From an uncultured Bacilli bacterium (GTDB lineage: Bacteria > Bacillota_I > Bacilli_A > RF39 > UBA660), in the NCBI GenBank assembly GCA_947629935.1, contig CANRFQ010000001.1, positions 22,444-86,443 on the forward strand: a stretch of 64,000 bases of DNA. Reading direction: 5' to 3'. The notes under the pieces were generated by a model. It saw only the letters and a list, made by a program, of their open reading frames with translations. It was not told the origin of the DNA and did not search any database. The first letter of the stretch is position 1. Each line of letters opens with the position of its first letter. The position numbers were made by a program, and so were the translations under genes. Positions 1 through 7,618 of the stretch are shown here, piece after piece.

Positions 1-1256
1 TCTAATAAAGAGGCAATTTCCAGGGTTTCACTAGATTTGATTAAAATTCCTTTTTGTAAAGATGTTCCCACCGATACTACCACTGCTAAAGGAGTTGCTA
101 ATCCTAAAGCACAGGGACAAGCTACAACGAGCACTGTTACCAAACTAATTAAAGCTTCATTAAATGAAAAGCCCAATAATAAATATCCTCCAAATGTTAA
201 AAGAGCAATAAGCATTATACTAGGCACAAAATAAGAACTTACTTTATCAGCAATTCGAGCAATTGGCATTTTCGTGTTACTTGCTTCTAAAACTAAATGA
301 ACCATTTCCGAAATAGTTGATTTTGGTCCAATTTTCTCCGCTTTGTATTCTACTACACCATCATAATTAATAGCTCCCGCGACTACTTTTTGACCTTTAC
401 TTTTTTTGGAAGGCGCAGATTCCCCGGTAATAAAGGATTCATCAAAATGGGCAGACCCTTTAATAACTTCTCCATCCACAGCCACTTTCATTCCAGGTTT
501 TACTATTAAGATATCCCCCACTTTTACTTCATCAATTGTAATTTCTTCTTCTTGCGTTTTGCTTTTTCTTAAAGCTTTTTCAGGTGTCACTTTAACCAAT
601 TCTTCAATTGCTTCTTTAGTTTTCTCTTTACTATTTTTATCAATATATCTTCCCAGTTTAATAAAGAAAATTATCATACAAACCGATTCAAAATATAAAT
701 TTGTTACGAAACTAGAATGACCAAAGATTATCAAAAACAAATTACCAACACTATAACCAAAACTAACGATTACTCCCAAGGTAACTAATGTATTCATATT
801 AGGAGTTTTATTTTTTAAATTTTTAAACCCAGCGACAATTATATCGCGTCCGTAAATTAAATATACAATAGATAAAATAGCTAAACTAACAGAAAAATTT
901 AGAGGATGATTATGCATATTTAAAAAAGGAATAACTGGTAATTTTATCATGTGTCCCATAGAAATATACATAATAAAAAGTAAAAGAATACCCAAAATTA
1001 ACAAATAAACTTTACTATGATCTTTTTTATTGTGCTCTTTTTCATCATAAATACCATTGTATTTATAACCTGTAGCATTAACATATTCTGCTAAATCTTC
1101 TACCGTTAAATTATCTTCATAGCAAACTAAAGCCTGCCCTAAAACTAAATTAACTGAAGCATCAACAATGCCCTTTTGTTTATTTAAATATTTTTCAATG
1201 GCGTTAGAACAAGCTGAACAAGTCATGCCTTCAATATTTAAAATTATTTTCTTCAC
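1..1256 (-). CDS. copA: Copper-translocating P-type ATPase CopA, N-terminal part (C-terminus lies beyond the window start); GTG start
   Basis: Minus-strand frame translates to a heavy-metal-associated domain (GMTCSACSNAIEK) followed by P-type ATPase TM/actuator segments. The plus-strand ORFs 37..234 and 406..720 are antisense artefacts. It lies downstream of copZ. Confidence 0.7.
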   Translation of the reverse strand, partial: MKKIILNIEGMTCSACSNAIEKYLNKQKGIVDASVNLVLGQALVCYEDNLTVEDLAEYVNATGYKYNGIYDEKEHNKKDHSKVYLLILGILLLFIMYISMGHMIKLPVIPFLNMHNHPLNFSVSLAILSIVYLIYGRDIIVAGFKNLKNKTPNMNTLVTLGVIVSFGYSVGNLFLIIFGHSSFVTNLYFESVCMIIFFIKLGRYIDKNSKEKTKEAIEELVKVTPEKALRKSKTQEEEITIDEVKVGDILIVKPGMKVAVDGEVIKGSAHFDESFITGESAPSKKSKGQKVVAGAINYDGVVEYKAEKIGPKSTISEMVHLVLEASNTKMPIARIADKVSSYFVPSIMLIALLTFGGYLLLGFSFNEALISLVTVLVVACPCALGLATPLAVVVSVGTSLQKGILIKSSETLEIASLL

Positions 1257-1258
1257 GT

Positions 1259-1471
1259 TTAAGCTTCTTTCTCTACTTCGTATCCCAAATTTTCAAGGGC
1301 TTGAATAAGCATTGTTTGAGAAATTTCTTCGTTAGCAGTAACTTGCACACTTTCTTTTTGGTAATTAGCTTTAACCTTTTTAACCCCTTCGATATTTTTT
1401 AAAGCATTTTCTACTCTATTTTCACAGCCATGACAGACCATACCTTTAACATTTAAAATTATTTTAATCAT
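1259..1471 (-). CDS. copZ: Copper chaperone CopZ (HMA domain, MxCxxC)
   Basis: 70 aa with a GMVCHGCENRV motif. RBS AAAGGAGGG lies upstream. An extended -10 (TGtTATAAT) is in the upstream intergenic region. Confidence 0.8.
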   Translation of the reverse strand: MIKIILNVKGMVCHGCENRVENALKNIEGVKKVKANYQKESVQVTANEEISQTMLIQALENLGYEVEKEA

Positions 1472-1573
1472 TAATTTCCCTCCTTTATTTCTTTTATTAT
1501 AACAATAATTCCTTTAATTGTGTTATTTATTTAAAATTAAGCTTTTTAAAACTCAACAACAGTTGAGCTTTAA

Positions 1574-3544
1574 TTACTTACTTCTTTGACGAATATAATT
1601 ACAAATTATCTCCGCCGTCTTTTCTTGACCAATCGAAGCATCTATACATAAATCATAATTTTCGGGATTATTCCATTTTTGATTAGAAATTATTTCATAA
1701 TAGCTAGCACGATTTTTATCAGATTTAATAATATTTTTCTTTGCTTTATCTTTCGTGTCACCATACATCTCTCTTACTTTTTCGATTCGATAATCTAAGT
1801 TAGCATAAATAAATATTCTTACTAAATTGGGATTATTTCGTAAAACATAATCCGCTGCTCTTCCAACAATAACACAAGAACCACATGAAGCAATCATATT
1901 AATGGCTTTTTCTTGGGCTTCAATCGCATACTTCACAGGCGCCGTTGTTAAATATAAGTCATGTAGTATATCTTTGCTTTGATTAATATTAGAAACAAAT
2001 TCTTTATCAAGGCCACTTTCTTTAGCTGCTAAAGAAACCATCTCTTTATAATAATAAGGAATATTTAATTTTTGAGCAACGAGCTTTCCAATCGCTTTAC
2101 CCTGACTACCATGTTCTCTGGCTATTGTAATTATTACACCGGCTTTAGAGTTTTGATAAGCTACTTCATCAGTTACTTTAGTTTCTTTAGATAAATTGTG
2201 GAAAAACATTGCTACTAGAATAATCGTTACTATTATTCCCATTATATCGGCAATCGGCGCCGCGATTAAAACGCCTTTTATTCCCATAAATTGTGGTAAT
2301 ATTATTACTAAAGGAATAAAACAAACAATATCTCTAGTAAGAGAAACTATCGTCGCTTTTAAAGGATCCCCAACTGCTTGAAAGAAAATTGAACATAACT
2401 TTATCAAGCATGTTAAAGTTACTAACATTAAGAATATTCTAAAAGTTAAAACCGCAAATTCCATATATAATTTTTGGTTAGTACCAAAAATACGAATAAT
2501 TAAATTTGGCCACAATTCAAAGATAATCGTAAATATTACCCCAATAGTTAAAGCAATAATAACTACCTTTTTAAATGTTTCTTTAACTCTATCAATATTT
2601 TTAGCCCCATAGTTATAACCTAAAATTGGTTGAGCTCCAACAATTAGACCTACGATGATATTTATAACTATTGAGAATACTTTCATAGCTATACCTATAA
2701 CAGCAATTGGAATATCTGCTCCATATTTACTTAAAGCGCCATACTTAGCTAACATAATATTGCAAATTAAAGAAATAGCTACAATACTCATTTGGGTAAT
2801 AAACGTTGAAACTCCTAATTTAATTACATTTTTAAATATTCCTAAGTTTATTTTAAAACTTTCCTTTGTTAATTTAAAAGTTTTAGTCCGAGTAAAATAT
2901 ATAATAGATATAATCAAAGATGCAATCTGACCAATAATAGTAGCATAAGCCGCCCCTTTTATGCCTAAGTTAAAGCCAAAAATAAAAATAGGATCCAAGA
3001 TAATATTTATTAAAGCTCCTATAGCAGTCGCAGCCATGGAAAATCTTGGGGAACCATCAGCCCTTATCACCGCATTCATACTATTTGCTACCATATAAAC
3101 CGGAATTGCAGCTAAAATAATAACATAATAGTCGCTAGCTAAACCTATACTTTTCGAACTAGCTCCAAATAAATAAAGTAAGTTATCTTTAAAAATAAAT
3201 CCTAAAATTAAGAAAATAATACTAATAATAAAAGTTATTAATACACTATTACCAATTGCTTTGTGAGCATTTTTGGTATCTTTTCTTCCTTGACATAAAG
3301 ATAGATAAGCGGCCGATCCATCTCCAAAAGCCCAAGCAAATGCCATTGTGATAATCGTTATAGGATATACTACACCTGTTGCAGCATTACCTAAATATCC
3401 TAAACTACTATTACCAATAAATATTTGATCTACTATATTATATAAAGAACTAATCAGTAAAGATAAAATACAAGGTATGGAAAATTTTAAAAGCAATTTA
3501 GATATTTTTTCTTCTCCTAAAAATTTATTATTTTCAGTTTCCAT
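1574..3544 (-). CDS. MATE-family multidrug/oligosaccharidyl-lipid efflux transporter fused to a C-terminal cytidylate-kinase-like (Cytidylate_kin2-type) domain
   Basis: 656 aa. The N-terminal ~455 aa are polytopic and MATE-like (12 TM segments, NorM/MatE-type). The C-terminal ~190 aa (IITIAREHGSQGKAIGKLVAQKLNIPYYYKEMV...) match the cytidylate-kinase-like family that is normally standalone. RBS AAAGGAGA. Confidence 0.8.
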   Translation of the reverse strand: METENNKFLGEEKISKLLLKFSIPCILSLLISSLYNIVDQIFIGNSSLGYLGNAATGVVYPITIITMAFAWAFGDGSAAYLSLCQGRKDTKNAHKAIGNSVLITFIISIIFLILGFIFKDNLLYLFGASSKSIGLASDYYVIILAAIPVYMVANSMNAVIRADGSPRFSMAATAIGALINIILDPIFIFGFNLGIKGAAYATIIGQIASLIISIIYFTRTKTFKLTKESFKINLGIFKNVIKLGVSTFITQMSIVAISLICNIMLAKYGALSKYGADIPIAVIGIAMKVFSIVINIIVGLIVGAQPILGYNYGAKNIDRVKETFKKVVIIALTIGVIFTIIFELWPNLIIRIFGTNQKLYMEFAVLTFRIFLMLVTLTCLIKLCSIFFQAVGDPLKATIVSLTRDIVCFIPLVIILPQFMGIKGVLIAAPIADIMGIIVTIILVAMFFHNLSKETKVTDEVAYQNSKAGVIITIAREHGSQGKAIGKLVAQKLNIPYYYKEMVSLAAKESGLDKEFVSNINQSKDILHDLYLTTAPVKYAIEAQEKAINMIASCGSCVIVGRAADYVLRNNPNLVRIFIYANLDYRIEKVREMYGDTKDKAKKNIIKSDKNRASYYEIISNQKWNNPENYDLCIDASIGQEKTAEIICNYIRQRSK

Positions 3545-3643
3545 TTTTTCTCCTTTCGTTATCTAAACCCTCGTTTTAAGCCAAAAAAAGAACGCAAAAA
3601 CTTGTGTCAGTTTCTACGCTTTTAAGCTGGGTCGACTTGTTCA

Positions 3644-3671
3644 TTATATTATTTTTTTTCATTTTTTGCAA
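3644..3671 (-). promoter_or_regulatory. Sigma-A-type promoter for the MATE gene (-35 TTGCAA, 17 bp spacer, -10 TATAAT), followed by a ~100-nt leader
   Basis: The reverse complement reads TTGCAA-N17-TATAAT about 100 nt upstream of the start codon. Confidence 0.4.
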
Positions 3672-3937
3672 GCAATTTTAAATGAAGTTGCATTCTTTTT
3701 TATTCCAAAATATGATTATCAGTTTACAAGTAATCTAAAGACAAAATATCCAAAATTTTTTTAATAAGTTACCTATTTATAGGCCGTCTGACATTATTCT
3801 ATCCTACTTTTTTTAAAGACTTTACCATTTGTTTTGCTTCTTTAATATATAAAAATAATATATTTTATCTTAATTTCTATTTCAATTTTTTCGAGAATCA
3901 ATCTATTGTTTTAAAGGAAGAAGTACAACAAATACTT

Positions 3938-4717
3938 TTATTTTTTTAAAACTTTAGAATAACCTATATCTAATAAATTAGTAAAATCATTAGGAATTTT
4001 TTCTCGTGCTTCTTTTATTAATTCATTAGGAATTCCATATAACGCCTCTGCCATTGAACCAACTATACAACCATTAGTATCTGTATCACCACCAAAAGAG
4101 ATAACTTTTAACAATGATTCTTCAAAGTTGTTTGAAATAAATAAGGCATATAAACAATTATCAATTGTTTTATAACAGGTTGTATTAAATCCATTAAAAT
4201 CAGAATAATTTAACTTTAAGTTTAATTCTTTTATTATTTCTTCTTTCGAAAAACCTAAACGTGCTAGAAAAATAATTAATGCAATAGTGGTGGCAGAATT
4301 TATTGCTTCTAAAGAATCGTGGGATGGAATAGTAGCCAAACGAGCATTATTAATTATATCTTTTTTGTTGTTAAACAAATAACCAACGGCAGAGATTCTC
4401 ATCATTGCCCCATTACCAATGCTTTTTCCATTTTTCTGATTCAATGCCCATTTTGTAAATCCAGGTGAAAAAATACCTTTGAAATAAGGTGAAAAATCAG
4501 GTTTATATATTAAAAAGTTTTTTGCGTATTTTTTCAAATAATACTCATAATTTTTATCATTTAAAATTGCATCCAAAATAGCTATAGTTAATATAGTATC
4601 ATCACTATAGAAACTTTTTTCATTAATCAGCTTTTTAGGATTTAATTTTGAAAAATATTTAGTTTGTTGATACTCATATATAGAACCTGCTAAATCTCCT
4701 ATGACTGCTCCCCACAT
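3938..4717 (-). CDS. ADP-ribosylglycohydrolase family protein (DraG-like)
   Basis: N-terminal GAVIGDLAGSIYEY and C-terminal GGDTDTNGCIVG motifs are typical of ADP-ribosyl hydrolases. RBS AGAGGT. Confidence 0.7.
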   Translation of the reverse strand: MWGAVIGDLAGSIYEYQQTKYFSKLNPKKLINEKSFYSDDTILTIAILDAILNDKNYEYYLKKYAKNFLIYKPDFSPYFKGIFSPGFTKWALNQKNGKSIGNGAMMRISAVGYLFNNKKDIINNARLATIPSHDSLEAINSATTIALIIFLARLGFSKEEIIKELNLKLNYSDFNGFNTTCYKTIDNCLYALFISNNFEESLLKVISFGGDTDTNGCIVGSMAEALYGIPNELIKEAREKIPNDFTNLLDIGYSKVLKK

Positions 4718-4797
4718 AGCGTTACCTCTTTTTTATTTATTGTCTTTTACAATATGCAATTGTATTTTCTAAACTATTATTTTTTTATAAAGTATTA

Positions 4798-4826
4798 TTG
4801 TAAAAAGAACAAATATTTGATATAAT
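4798..4826 (+). promoter_or_regulatory. Strong sigma-A promoter (-35 TTGTAA, 17 bp, extended -10 TGaTATAAT) driving the small peptide ORF
   Basis: Read directly from the sequence. It is near-consensus and carries the TG extension. Confidence 0.5.
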
Positions 4827-4902
4827 ATTCATGGATACATTTGAAATATCAGATGTTTTCCCTTTCAATTATCCAATGATAAGAGAAAGGTGGTGGTTAA
4901 TT

Positions 4903-4980
4903 ATGACAAAAAGAGAACTTCCTCTATTTATTATAATTCTGCTATTATTCTTTGTAGTAATCACCTTACTATTTAGATAA
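4903..4980 (+). CDS. 25-aa hydrophobic peptide (MTKRELPLFIIILLLFFVVITLLFR), candidate type I toxin-like small membrane peptide
   Basis: RBS AAGGTGGTG lies 8 nt upstream of the ATG. The peptide has a single predicted TM helix. It sits about 75 nt downstream of the strong promoter and is immediately followed by a bidirectional terminator hairpin. Confidence 0.4.
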   Translation: MTKRELPLFIIILLLFFVVITLLFR

Positions 4981-4981
4981 T

Positions 4982-5018
4982 AAAAACATCTGATTTCAAC
5001 AATCGTTGATTTCAGATG
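4982..5018 (-). terminator. Intrinsic terminator hairpin (7+5 bp stem, loop AATC) with a U-run on the minus strand; structurally bidirectional
   Basis: catctgatttcaac/gttgatttcagatg arms are followed on the minus strand by UUUUUAUUAU. Leader segment 4843-4855 (GAAATATCAGATG) can alternatively pair with the 5' arm. Confidence 0.55.
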
Positions 5019-5098
5019 CCATCCAATAAGGGATAACACCTGATTCTCGCAATCAAATGTATCCTTTTTTATTTTATGCAAGTTTCCTTGACATATTC

Positions 5099-5127
5099 AT
5101 CATAACATAAAAACGACTTTTTGACAA
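5099..5127 (-). promoter_or_regulatory. Minus-strand promoter (-35 TTGTCA, 17 bp, -10 TATGAT) oriented toward the 4982-5018 terminator; candidate antisense-RNA promoter
   Basis: Read directly from the sequence. It would generate a ~100-nt RNA convergent with the small-peptide mRNA and overlapping its 3' end. Confidence 0.35.
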
Positions 5128-5135
5128 GTCGTTTT
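5108..5135 (-). terminator. Intrinsic terminator downstream of tRNA-Met (9-bp stem aaaacgact/agtcgtttt followed by a U-run on the minus strand)
   Basis: Hairpin plus UUUUUAUGUUAUG on the minus strand, 40 nt after the tRNA 3' end. Confidence 0.55.
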
Positions 5136-5172
5136 ATATTGATACTCGAAAAGTTCGAGTTTCCTATCCATC

Positions 5173-5249
5173 TGGTAGCGGCGGGGGGATTCGAACCCTC
5201 GACCTATCGGGTATGAACCGAGTGCTCTAGCCAACTGAGCTACACCGCC
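5173..5249 (-). tRNA. tRNA-Met (anticodon CAT), 77 nt with encoded CCA
   Basis: The reverse complement GGCGGTGTAGCTCAGTTGGCTAGAGCACTCGGTTCATACCCGATAGGTCGAGGGTTCGAATCCCCCCGCCGCTACCA folds as a cloverleaf. The GCTCAGTTGG D-arm, TTCGAAT T-loop and CAT anticodon match elongator tRNA-Met of Firmicutes; Ile2(CAU) cannot be excluded. Confidence 0.85.
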
Positions 5250-5268
5250 ATAAAAAGTAAGCAATATG

Positions 5269-5297
5269 ATTATAACAAATAATTACATCTTTGACAA
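5269..5297 (-). promoter_or_regulatory. Promoter for tRNA-Met (-35 TTGTCA, 17 bp, -10 TATAAT)
   Basis: Consensus hexamers lie about 20 nt upstream of the mature tRNA 5' end. Confidence 0.5.
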
Positions 5298-5333
5298 CAA
5301 AAATTATAAAAAAAACAGGGCTTATAACCACTA

Positions 5334-5693
5334 TTAAATCCAACGAGCTATATAAATATTACGGGTCATTCCCTCTTGATATCTTTCAAAAATTTTAATA
5401 ATGTTATCAATTATAACCTTTAAAACATTTGTAACCGTACTTTTTACTCTAACTTGTAATAACTCTTTTTTCATTTCATTTCGAAAAGTATAATCATCAA
5501 TATATTTAGAAATAATATTATCAACACAAGTGGCTTTTTTAATTTCTTCAACATTATTTAAATCAATATTACAAACATACTTTTTATAAAATCCTATTAA
5601 TCTTTCACTAATATAATCACTTTCTAAAAATTCAAACTCCGTAATTTTATAATAATTAGGACAATATTTTACAACCATATTTGCACTGCTCAT
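5334..5693 (-). CDS. Hypothetical protein (119 aa)
   Basis: Clean ORF with a consensus promoter and a GGGAAGTG RBS. No recognisable motif. Confidence 0.5.
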   Translation of the reverse strand: MSSANMVVKYCPNYYKITEFEFLESDYISERLIGFYKKYVCNIDLNNVEEIKKATCVDNIISKYIDDYTFRNEMKKELLQVRVKSTVTNVLKVIIDNIIKIFERYQEGMTRNIYIARWI

Positions 5694-5726
5694 TTACTGC
5701 ACTTCCCTACTCATGTATTCTAGATA

Positions 5727-5755
5727 AATTATAGTAAAAAAAAATTGTTTTGTCA
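5727..5755 (-). promoter_or_regulatory. Consensus sigma-A promoter (-35 TTGACA, 17 bp, -10 TATAAT) for the 119-aa ORF, overlapping the rseP stop codon
   Basis: Read directly from the sequence. It is a perfect match to the consensus. Confidence 0.5.
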
Positions 5756-6805
5756 AAACAATTTTAAGATATCTTGCAAGGTTATATATATCATTAAAAG
5801 GAGTAACAATATGAACCCTACTGTATGGAATGCATTTTCTACTTTAGAATTAACAGGACTACCTTTTATTTTTTCAATTATTAGAAATAATATTCTACCT
5901 CCATCAAATGCCGGGAAAGGTAATATATTAATAAATCCTAAATTAATACTCAAAAACGCAATTAAATATATTACTTGTTGAATACCTACCGTTAAACTTT
6001 CACCGACTACTCCATAAATACCAACTGGTCCTGATAAAGAGCTAAGGCCTAATCCTCCTGTGAATAAATTAACTATTACGATAGCCATTGAATCAATAAC
6101 AGCCCCAAATTTCAAAACGGCATATTTTAAAGCTTGCACAAAACCATATTTCTTAGTAGTATCAATTTGGACTCCGAACACTTTTCGAGTATTACCTTTT
6201 TCATCTTTTTCCGTAACTGGTTTTATTTTATAATCTTTAATATCACCATTAGTTTTTTCAATTTTGAAAGTATAATAATCGTTTTTACTTTTAATATTTA
6301 ATAAAATTTGAGCTTTATCCCAAGTATTAACTTTTTTATCATTAACAGCAATTATGCGGTCGCCTTTTTCAATTCCAGCTTTTTCTATTGGATAACCTTC
6401 AGTTACTTTACCTACAACTGGTTCTAAAGAAGAACTACCCCAAATTAGAGCCGATAAAAATAATAAAACAAAGGCTAAAACAAAATTAAAAGTTACCCCC
6501 GCAACTAAAATTAAAAAACGTTGAAAACCAGTTTTATTACACATAAATTTTTCTTTAGGTATATTTTTATCATCTTCGGAAACTTCCCCTGCCATTTGGA
6601 CATATCCCCCAATAGGTAGAGCTCTTACCGAATACTGAATTCCATCTTTTTTACTAATTTTTTTAAATAAGATAGGTCCCATACCAATTGAAAACTCATA
6701 AATGTGAACCCCACATTTTTTAGCAAAAATAAAGTGACCAAATTCATGAATCATTACTAAAAGGCCTAAAATAAAAATTAAAACAATTAAAGTAACAAAC
6801 CACAT
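5753..6805 (-). CDS. rseP: Regulated intramembrane site-2 zinc metalloprotease RseP/RasP (M50 family, PDZ domain)
   Basis: HEFGHF zinc motif, a central PDZ domain and a C-terminal LDGG motif. Strong RBS AAGGAGGA. Lies downstream of cdsA as in Firmicutes. Confidence 0.9.
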   Translation of the reverse strand: MWFVTLIVLIFILGLLVMIHEFGHFIFAKKCGVHIYEFSIGMGPILFKKISKKDGIQYSVRALPIGGYVQMAGEVSEDDKNIPKEKFMCNKTGFQRFLILVAGVTFNFVLAFVLLFLSALIWGSSSLEPVVGKVTEGYPIEKAGIEKGDRIIAVNDKKVNTWDKAQILLNIKSKNDYYTFKIEKTNGDIKDYKIKPVTEKDEKGNTRKVFGVQIDTTKKYGFVQALKYAVLKFGAVIDSMAIVIVNLFTGGLGLSSLSGPVGIYGVVGESLTVGIQQVIYLIAFLSINLGFINILPFPAFDGGRILFLIIEKIKGSPVNSKVENAFHTVGFILLLLLMIYITLQDILKLF

Positions 6806-6817
6806 AATAAATCCTCC

Positions 6818-7618
6818 TTATAATATTGTAAACATTATTAAAAATGCTATAACTACAAATATTAAACTATCTAATCTATCTAATACTCCTCCATGACCAG
6901 GAATTAATTTAGAAAAATCTTTAATCTTAGATTCTCTTTTAATTTTACTAAAAACTAAATCCCCTATTTGCCCTATGATAGATAATATTACCACAAATAT
7001 ACATATCTTTATAACATTAACATTAGAGCTAATTAAATTTAGATAGAACATAACGGCAACAAATGTTCCTAAAACAATACCACAAAGGCTTCCTTCCCAT
7101 GTTTTACCAGGGGAAACACTAACTATCAATTTATGTTTACCAATTAATTTACCAAATATTAAAGCAAAAGTATCATTTAATACTGTAATTAATACTAAAA
7201 ATACTAATAATAAAACATTATAATCAACTAAAACAATTAATATATTAAAGAAAACTCCTAATAGTAAAATCCAACCAATTAAATAAAATGCATCTTTCGT
7301 CGTATATTTATCATTAGCGCCATAAAAAATGGTAGGACCTAAAAGCAAAATTAATAAATAGCCAATAGTTCGAAACGAAAGACCTAAGTTTAACAAATAA
7401 TCATTTTTTGAAGTAAAAATTAATATAAGCAAACTTATCATTCCTAATACTTTAATAATACTAGGTAAATTTTTTTCTTTCTTTTTTAAATCTATAACTT
7501 CCTTAAATGCTAAAATACTTACAATACCTACCCCTATTTTAAAAGGTAATCCTCCTATAATTATAAGAGGAACAAAAATTGCAATTAAGATAGCTGCGCT
7601 TAAAATTCTTTTTTTCAT
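6818..7618 (-). CDS. cdsA: Phosphatidate cytidylyltransferase CdsA (ATG start; the ORF track begins at an upstream TTG)
   Basis: Polytopic protein with the CdsA C-terminal signature (SxxKRxxxxKDxxxxxPGHGGxxDRxDS). Synteny with rseP. Confidence 0.85.
   Translation of the reverse strand: MKKRILSAAILIAIFVPLIIIGGLPFKIGVGIVSILAFKEVIDLKKKEKNLPSIIKVLGMISLLILIFTSKNDYLLNLGLSFRTIGYLLILLLGPTIFYGANDKYTTKDAFYLIGWILLLGVFFNILIVLVDYNVLLLVFLVLITVLNDTFALIFGKLIGKHKLIVSVSPGKTWEGSLCGIVLGTFVAVMFYLNLISSNVNVIKICIFVVILSIIGQIGDLVFSKIKRESKIKDFSKLIPGHGGVLDRLDSLIFVVIAFLIMFTIL

Follow-up and report, generated by a model that had tools for sequence, protein, structure and literature searches.

A MATE transporter joined in a single reading frame to a cytidylate-kinase-like domain is encoded in a 64,000-nucleotide stretch of DNA from an uncultured Bacilli bacterium (contig CANRFQ010000001.1; the whole stretch is called the window below). 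The gene is one open reading frame (ORF) on the minus strand (1574..3544) with an ATG start. Its product of 656 amino acids (aa) consists of a 12-helix transporter, a short linker and a C-terminal domain of the Pfam family PF13189 (Cytidylate_kin2). This fusion is a real, widespread and unstudied variant of a known transporter family, and an uncatalogued RNA element is attached to its gene. An earlier description made from the DNA letters (the sequence-only reading) had reported the continuous 656-aa frame, omitting that it lies on the minus strand.

Both halves of the protein were detected by curated profiles. The transporter half matches MatE (PF01554) in two repeats (E 8e-40, 136.6 bits, cut-off 24.9) and the NCBIfam model TIGR00797 (matE; 198.2 bits, cut-off 147.4), and the nearest named models are VmrA/PRK09575, FepA and MepA. 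Residues 471-637 match positions 1-175 of the 176 in the PF13189 model (E 6e-45, 153.9 bits, cut-off 28). The domain scan, which had been named as a possible refutation of the cytidylate-kinase-like assignment, thus bore it out over the full model length. The peptide quoted in its support (IITIAREHGSQGK) is present as well: positions 2096-2128 of the minus strand translate to TIAREHGSQGK.

The fusion is found in many other genomes. Among 5.8 billion proteins, at least 120 distinct clusters of 650-690 aa are 69-99% identical to the window protein over 95-100% of its length, and all of them carry both Pfam domains. A scan of one genome per GTDB species uncovered at least 586 loci encoding relatives, of which the best 80 were examined. 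About 72 of these contain an uninterrupted fused ORF, in genomes with a GC content from 22% to 64%. Cultured isolates with an intact fusion include Hungatella effluvii DSM 24995 and Clostridium sp. MCC353, and the protein of a rabbit-gut uncultured Bacilli bacterium (locus L001, a metagenome-assembled genome, MAG) is 99% identical to that of the window. In four loci (L032, L049, L055, L060) the fused gene is broken by frameshifts that put its halves in different frames, a pattern that may reflect pseudogenes or errors in MAG assembly. Two loci, L063 and L075, have the two parts split into separate genes. Two others encode the transporter only (L057, 95-1456, and L058 from Clostridium disporicum, 5995-7398): these proteins are 70-73% identical to the MATE part of the window protein and end right past transmembrane helix (TM) 12, and no PF13189 gene lies within 6 kb. 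L058 has kept the conserved leader described below in the absence of PF13189, so the domain may have been lost or gained recently.

In the split loci one in-frame stop codon separates the two parts, and a single base error could therefore turn one form into the other. This lends some plausibility to an assembly or sequencing artefact joining neighbouring genes, an alternative already raised in the sequence-only reading. Its probability is practically nil, as the ORF is continuous in about 72 of 80 independent species-level assemblies, cultured isolates among them, and in at least 120 protein clusters. The fused linkers also have no ribosome-binding site (RBS) or start codon, unlike the split forms. 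The comparative evidence rules out a frameshift or assembly artefact; the in-frame fusion is genuine and conserved. The architecture had also been called non-standard for a MATE protein. This stands insofar as no solved MATE has such a domain and literature searches found no publication on a MATE-PF13189 fusion, but in gut Firmicutes the architecture is common, not rare.

The NCBI taxon labels of several of these loci look inconsistent with contig content, namely L012, L018 and L020 (labelled Muribaculaceae) and L033-L049 (labelled Candidatus Saccharibacteria). On contigs labelled Muribaculaceae with a GC content of 24-29%, for instance, the gene is of Firmicutes type and its product ~71% identical to the window protein. 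Because of this clash, the taxon names of such MAG records are not trustworthy.

The two parts also occur together as neighbouring genes. The MATE gene of L063 (Clostridium sp. AM58-1XD) and that of L075 are each closed by a stop codon, after which comes a separate PF13189 gene with its own Shine-Dalgarno sequence and ATG. Four of the seven sampled stand-alone PF13189 lineages (P0131 from Anaerostipes, P0160, P0189, P0228) have the gene 3-21 nucleotides (nt) downstream of a ~460-aa MatE gene on the same strand. In a neighbour-joining tree of the C-domains at least two separate fused clades are visible, with split forms beside them; as the tree carries no support values, this separation is tentative. 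Since they are fused in about 72 of 80 loci and adjacent in other lineages, MATE and PF13189 constitute a conserved functional pair. The fusion is a Rosetta-stone case: both proteins work together in many gut Firmicutes.

PF13189 is found in other contexts too. With an E-value limit of 1e-3, an exhaustive profile-free search retrieved 7511 representative proteins. MATE fusions of full length (~17) are found among the best 150 together with fragments and many ~200-aa proteins that stand alone. PF13189 is indeed mostly a stand-alone protein of that size, as previously stated. The domain is likewise fused to the C-terminus of YczE-like (DUF6198) membrane proteins (P0337, P0358, P0390; 431-435 aa), and in one case (P0367, 464 aa) it follows an NTPase and a MobA-like nucleotidyltransferase. 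The domain thus recurs as an extension of membrane proteins and of proteins that handle nucleotides.

The transporter module belongs to the DinF type. The 12-TM MATE assignment of the sequence-only reading was right and its NorM-type label was not: the closest solved relative is DinF-BH from Bacillus halodurans (BH2163; 4lz6/5c6n), aligned by phmmer over residues 4-444 with E 1e-67. As in the MATE fold, AlphaFold2 places 12 long helices between residues 14 and 452, and Foldseek gave target-normalised TM-scores of 0.82-0.89 to solved MATEs (PfMATE, DinF-BH, VcmN). Asp39 aligns with the DinF-subfamily aspartate, Asp40 of DinF-BH in TM1, which we take to be the residue for proton and substrate coupling, and both Asp39 and Asp184 are invariant in 39 aligned homologues. 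The likeness to DinF-BH and the MepA/FepA/VmrA group thus extends to full-length alignment, the 12-TM fold and the TM1 aspartate. However, DinF-BH and the other matched solved MATEs stop after TM12, whereas the window protein has 200 extra residues. No solved MATE chain found by Foldseek spans both domains (query-normalised TM-score at most 0.62, alignments of at most ~480 columns), and the MATE half and the C-domain half match separate PDB entries. The termini of MATE transporters are cytoplasmic, so the C-domain should be cytoplasmic as well.

The linker between the two modules has 16 residues and a mean pairwise identity of 24%, whereas the MATE part reaches 76% and the C-domain 71% (39 homologues aligned). 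Such a contrast reads as the signature of two selected domains on a free tether. The full-length AlphaFold2 model (mean pLDDT 81.4) shows the 12 long helices, a disordered linker with pLDDT below 50 at residues 453-462, and an alpha/beta domain.

The C-domain has the fold of the solved PF13189 members 3hdt (Clostridium symbiosum, "putative kinase") and 3fdi (Eubacterium ventriosum, "uncharacterized protein"). Unlike the fusion, these are separate soluble proteins of ~200 aa, and the window clade differs from them in its loop variant R-x-H-G-S-x-G-K. The fold is that of nucleoside monophosphate (NMP) kinases, with the Gly-Arg motif and the lid arginine present; gluconate, shikimate and dephospho-CoA kinases come last in the list of resemblances. 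The family profile aligns end to end with the Streptococcus pneumoniae cytidine monophosphate (CMP) kinase 1q3t, and this alignment places the Walker A motif of 1q3t (G-P-A-S-S-G-K-S-T) opposite R-E-f-G-s-g-G-r-e in PF13189. In the window protein the first Walker A glycine is replaced by Arg476, the catalytic lysine by Gly482 and the Mg-binding Ser/Thr by Lys483 (Arg in most relatives). The aspartate before the Gly-Arg motif is hydrophobic family-wide (Val in the 1q3t alignment), and the Gly-Arg motif and the lid arginine are kept. Arg476, Gly482, Gly561, Arg562, Leu568 and Arg612 are invariant in 48 diverse PF13189 members, and R-x-x-G-x-x-G-[KR] is found in 30 of the 30 fused, split and stand-alone members listed.

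The ATP-side catalytic apparatus of this domain is gone, while the monophosphate-site and lid arginines remain and one more invariant arginine has been added. The window sequence R-E-H-G-S-Q-G-K-A does not conform to the canonical Walker A GxxxxGK[ST], and the score for the archaeal CMP-kinase model TIGR02173 is far below threshold (27.8 bits, NCBIfam cut-off 102.1). Bacterial and archaeal CMP kinases have GxxxxGK[ST] where PF13189 has RxxGxxG[KR], and PF13189 has lost the aspartate before Gly-Arg. The domain is therefore not a CMP kinase (EC 2.7.4.25). Judged by these residues, it probably forms an anion- or nucleotide-binding pocket lacking classical kinase chemistry, and it is best interpreted as a ligand-binding regulatory pseudokinase rather than an enzyme. 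The sequence-only reading had offered both a regulatory or sensing module and a nucleotide-linked substrate handler; the non-canonical Walker A favours the former over a working kinase.

It is unlikely, given these residue changes, that the C-domain is an active kinase for a small molecule or nucleotide in metabolic coupling with the transporter, but this alternative has points in its favour: the NMP-kinase fold is complete with lid and monophosphate-site arginines, tight gene coupling to a transporter is typical of substrate-handling pairs, and Lys/Arg483 is conserved in nearly all listed members. Such an enzyme could phosphorylate a toxin or metabolite before export, like chloramphenicol phosphotransferase, or trap an imported nucleoside-like substrate in the manner of PnuC/NadR. 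The invariant glycine in place of the Walker A lysine, the replaced Mg-binding Ser/Thr, the family-wide hydrophobic residue before Gly-Arg and the low CMP-kinase score all speak against it. To our knowledge characterised MATE transporters are exporters, which argues against import and trapping in particular.

The C-domain might instead bind no ligand and have a structural purpose, helping the transporter to fold, insert into the membrane, oligomerise or reach its place in the cell. MATE-only orthologues at ~70% identity, the degenerate catalytic motifs and the attachment of the domain to the unrelated YczE-like (DUF6198) family would all be compatible with this. It is nevertheless quite improbable, since three arginines and two glycines around the former nucleotide site are strictly invariant, as expected of a conserved anion-binding pocket and not of a mere scaffold, and the C-domain is as conserved as the transporter.

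Expression of the fusion gene likely depends on a conserved promoter and leader. A sigma-70-type promoter lies ~92 nt upstream of the ATG. The promoter scan alone did not exceed chance (13 sites found, 15.6 expected), and neither did the terminator scan. The position of the promoter, however, is conserved: in 36 of 37 related loci a -10 element that agrees with the consensus at 5 or more of its 6 positions ends 12-16 nt before an invariant CAGC, and in 33 of 37 a -35 element agrees at 4 or more of 6. The -35/-10 pair occurs at the same fixed distance from the leader even in an Oscillospiraceae genome of 64% GC. The promoter is therefore real and positionally conserved, and transcription probably starts ~7 nt downstream of the -10 element, at a conserved AAG. 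The strong promoter and ~100-nt leader that had been predicted from the letters were both recovered, the leader turning out to be a conserved structured RNA.

This leader measures ~92 nt (3545-3640 in the window, minus strand). From 5' to 3' it contains the tail (A)AGUCnGAnCCAGC, a short spacer, a strong hairpin, a run of 6-8 U, GCnnUAAAA, a GGGUUAGAU-like segment and the RBS. The hairpin has the base GCGUA/UACGC and usually GAC in its loop. In the window the terminator-like site has 12 pairs followed by CUUUUUUU (minimum free energy -13.3 kcal/mol). The hairpin and U-run lie downstream of the promoter and upstream of the ORF, the predicted layout of a terminator or attenuator, and are conserved in 40 loci; RNAalifold found compensatory changes at 5 of 11 hairpin pairs. 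A leader with the 5' tail AAGUCnGAnCCAGC was also seen upstream of the homologous gene in L002-L060, L089 and L103.

The leader is restricted to this gene. A covariance model built from 35 sequences was searched against both strands of 89 sources (1.05 Mb) and gave one strong match per locus in 43 of the 89, always directly upstream of a fusion-clade gene, the MATE-only C. disporicum homologue included; no other full-length match was found. The window match (3579-3640, minus strand) scored 53.5 bits with E of about 1e-9. A pattern scan of metagenomes returned 25 matches, 23 of them due to chance in high-GC contigs, and revealed no new gene associations; the two true matches both precede the same MATE gene. 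No Rfam 15 family matched the leader below E = 1 in a scan of window positions 1-6000 or, with E up to 10, of positions 3530-3700, and a gathering-threshold scan of 11 related loci revealed no leader family; these scans yielded tRNAs and insignificant matches only. The papers checked on genome-wide discovery of noncoding RNA mention no MATE-associated motif like this leader, and literature searches for riboswitch candidates linked to MATE genes gave nothing specific.

Longer-range pairings in the leader were analysed statistically. The complementarity between the 5' tail and the segment before the RBS was reached by 3 of 2000 cross-locus permutations and by 0 of 500 shuffles, making GACCC:GGGUU a candidate long-range helix that would enclose the hairpin. 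For a pseudoknot between tail and loop, compensatory-looking variants exist in L044, L038, L040 and L007 and three loci contradict it; this pairing is only suggestive. A search for an alternative nascent-RNA fold acting as antiterminator gave a weak signal (mean z -0.5).

The hairpin and U-run could also be the terminator of the preceding gene, with the conserved nucleotides being a DNA operator or due to chance. Terminators before genes are common, no antiterminator was identified here, and neither the promoter nor the terminator scan alone rises above chance. Even so, this explanation is very unlikely: the preceding ORF ends at 3938, ~320 nt from the hairpin, and the fixed-distance promoter intervenes in 36 of 37 loci. 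The GCGUA base, the CAGC and the 5' tail sequence stay the same in genomes from 22% to 64% GC, a degree of conservation that a plain terminator would not require; the stem pairs covary, and so does the 5' tail with the downstream segment. These patterns led to the conclusion that a conserved cis-regulatory RNA precedes the gene. It most likely acts as a transcription attenuator and may represent a new riboswitch class.

Known riboswitches with terminator-embedded aptamers come closest in concept to this leader. In two sources (bioRxiv 10.1101/2020.10.21.349134; PMC6478431), guanidine-IV (mepA motif) and HMP-PP (thiS motif) are described as terminator-embedded aptamers, in which a hairpin with unusually conserved nucleotides cooperates with an upstream element, and guanidine-IV controls MepA/MATE-like genes. 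As in those accounts, the hairpin of the window leader resembles a terminator, its loop and base are conserved, and a conserved strand lies upstream. It differs from the riboswitches so described in having no upstream P1 hairpin, as only ~13 nt separate the probable transcription start from the hairpin; it thus lacks the P1 hairpin of guanidine-IV. Nor did the leader match guanidine-IV in Rfam 15, a release in which the presence of this family is unconfirmed.

More distant fusions (43-46% identity) and the split operons have different leaders. Those of the split MatE and PF13189 operons, at ~2440-2617 in L081/L082 (Anaerostipes) and at ~5860-5990 in L063 (Clostridium sp. AM58-1XD), resemble one another. 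They contain a U-run preceded by a hairpin like that of a terminator, GGUAGCU...UGUGAAAACCAA(A)CACA...GCU..C. This leader may be a second conserved regulatory element for the pair. Longer leaders were also noted in L044 (~5885-5960, Hungatella), L058 (~5935-5985, C. disporicum) and L038 (~3215-3280, Oscillospiraceae MAG), with an additional conserved UUUAGG(U/C)A(G/C)CUUUUCU...AAAGA(C/G)UCCA between the first hairpin and the RBS.

A model that we hold with about even confidence is that the window protein is a proton-coupled exporter, tuned by a tethered pseudokinase that senses a phosphorylated small molecule and synthesised conditionally through its leader. The C-terminus of the DinF-type transporter would be tied by the flexible linker to the PF13189 domain, the two forming a two-part unit that is fused in the window lineage and encoded by adjacent genes elsewhere. 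A basic pocket made of the invariant Arg476, Arg562 and Arg612 together with Lys/Arg483 would bind the ligand, such as a nucleotide or nucleotide-like metabolite; binding of a phosphorylated ligand is most likely because the catalytic residues of the ATP site are lost and the strongly basic pocket is kept. PF13189 would then have no kinase role and would regulate export allosterically, by tuning or gating it. Transcription from the conserved promoter would run through the terminator-like hairpin of the leader, which may be a riboswitch of the terminator-embedded kind, and attenuation would make expression conditional. The analysis shows the architecture and how it is conserved, the fold, the changed motifs, the pairing of the genes, and that the leader is conserved and exclusive to this gene; from there we infer the cytoplasmic location of the C-domain, the ligand binding, the regulatory rather than catalytic role and the attenuation.

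A partial precedent exists in Mycobacterium tuberculosis, where MviN (Rv3910) is a MurJ-type flippase of the MOP superfamily with a cytoplasmic pseudokinase domain under regulation by PknB/FhaA. Like it, the window protein is predicted to combine a MOP-superfamily transporter with a C-terminal intracellular, kinase-like and non-catalytic regulatory domain. The domain of MviN, however, has a eukaryotic-type Ser/Thr protein-kinase fold, whereas here a P-loop NMP-kinase fold is attached to a DinF-type MATE.

Several observations weigh against the model of a pseudokinase-tuned exporter. The MATE-only homologues L057 and L058 indicate that PF13189 is dispensable for the transporter core, and three of the seven stand-alone PF13189 genes (P0207, P0149, P0190) have no adjoining MATE gene. 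The relative placement of the two domains in the AlphaFold2 model is unreliable (low linker pLDDT, pTM 0.68). Catalysis by the C-domain remains conceivable, because the basic Lys/Arg483, one position past the lost lysine, could in principle rescue phosphoryl transfer. The solved structures 3hdt and 3fdi are structural-genomics orphans, and literature searches for the function of PF13189 found nothing specific. As for the leader, no clear antiterminator was found, and base pairing between its 5' tail and the loop of the hairpin fell short of significance (248 of 2000 permutations).

A more far-reaching version would be a dedicated, doubly gated metabolite-export system of gut Firmicutes, in which a new riboswitch class, built from the 5' terminus of the transcript and a terminator-embedded aptamer, is combined with the first allosteric sensing gate known on a MATE transporter. 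The riboswitch would sense the pump substrate or a stress signal and the PF13189 pseudokinase a nucleotide or metabolite. This version is a long shot.

The features of the fusion gene and its surroundings are given in Table 1. The hairpin past the stop codon could tentatively be a weak terminator of the fusion gene. The window contains no further PF13189 or MATE genes, and across 81 loci no gene consistently adjoins the fusion gene. A family of 741-aa ORFs occurs near it in 10 loci, the window included. Directly downstream lies a 70-aa ORF (1259-1471, minus strand) with the metal-binding motif GMVCHGC, resembling CopZ/HMA-like copper chaperones, and a tRNA gene is found upstream of the region (5176-5249, minus strand; Rfam 61.6 bits). 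The GC content of the window is 28%.

Table 1. Positions of the MATE-PF13189 fusion gene, its protein modules and its predicted expression signals in the window.
Feature	Positions	Strand	Basis
Complete fusion ORF including stop codon (1574-1576)	1574..3544	-	ORF call, Pfam, NCBIfam
MATE module, residues 1-452, 12 long helices, DinF-type	2189..3544	-	Pfam, NCBIfam, AlphaFold2, DinF-BH alignment
Variable linker, residues 453-468 (KETKVTDEVAYQNSKA)	2141..2188	-	Low identity, low pLDDT, translation
PF13189 (Cytidylate_kin2) domain, residues 469-656, NMP-kinase fold, presumably cytoplasmic	1577..2140	-	
Remodelled P-loop TIAREHGSQGK, residues 473-483	2096..2128	-	Translation, profile alignment to 1q3t
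AAGGAG RBS, 5 nt 5' of the ATG at 3544	3550..3555	-	Sequence reading
Sigma-70-type promoter: -35 TTGCAA (3671-3666), 17-nt spacer, -10 TATAAT (3648-3643)	3643..3671	-	Scan and positional conservation
Conserved leader core: 5' tail AAGUCGACCCAGC (3638-3626), GCGUA-base hairpin (~3620-3591), U-run (3590-3581)	3579..3640	-	Covariance model
GGGUU segment before the RBS, complementary to GACCC (3633-3629) of the 5' tail	3566..3570	-	Permutation and shuffle tests
Palindromic hairpin CTCAAC-TGTT-GTTGAG then UUUU, directly past the stop codon	1552..1567	-	Palindrome scan (plus strand), minus-strand reading from sequence

MATE pumps are regarded as secondary transporters that are complete in themselves. 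Were a conserved cytoplasmic ligand-binding module to belong to them, whether by fusion or by co-transcription, their activity would be open to allosteric control, as that of other carriers is through CBS, RCK or STAS domains. The pairing with MATE is also the first functional handle on PF13189, a family with thousands of members and two orphan crystal structures, and the doubly gated version, if true, would assign a role to the family as a whole. In a 2026 atlas (PMC13601570), PF13189 and MATE appear as separate entries among the colonization-factor families that have the highest numbers of homologs detected in the human gut; in the window fusion the two are physically linked. Interest in the system would rise if the sensing and gating roles were confirmed. 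The conserved, uncatalogued leader offers an experimental route to the physiological substrate of the pump: if it is a riboswitch, its ligand should be the pump substrate or a related signal.

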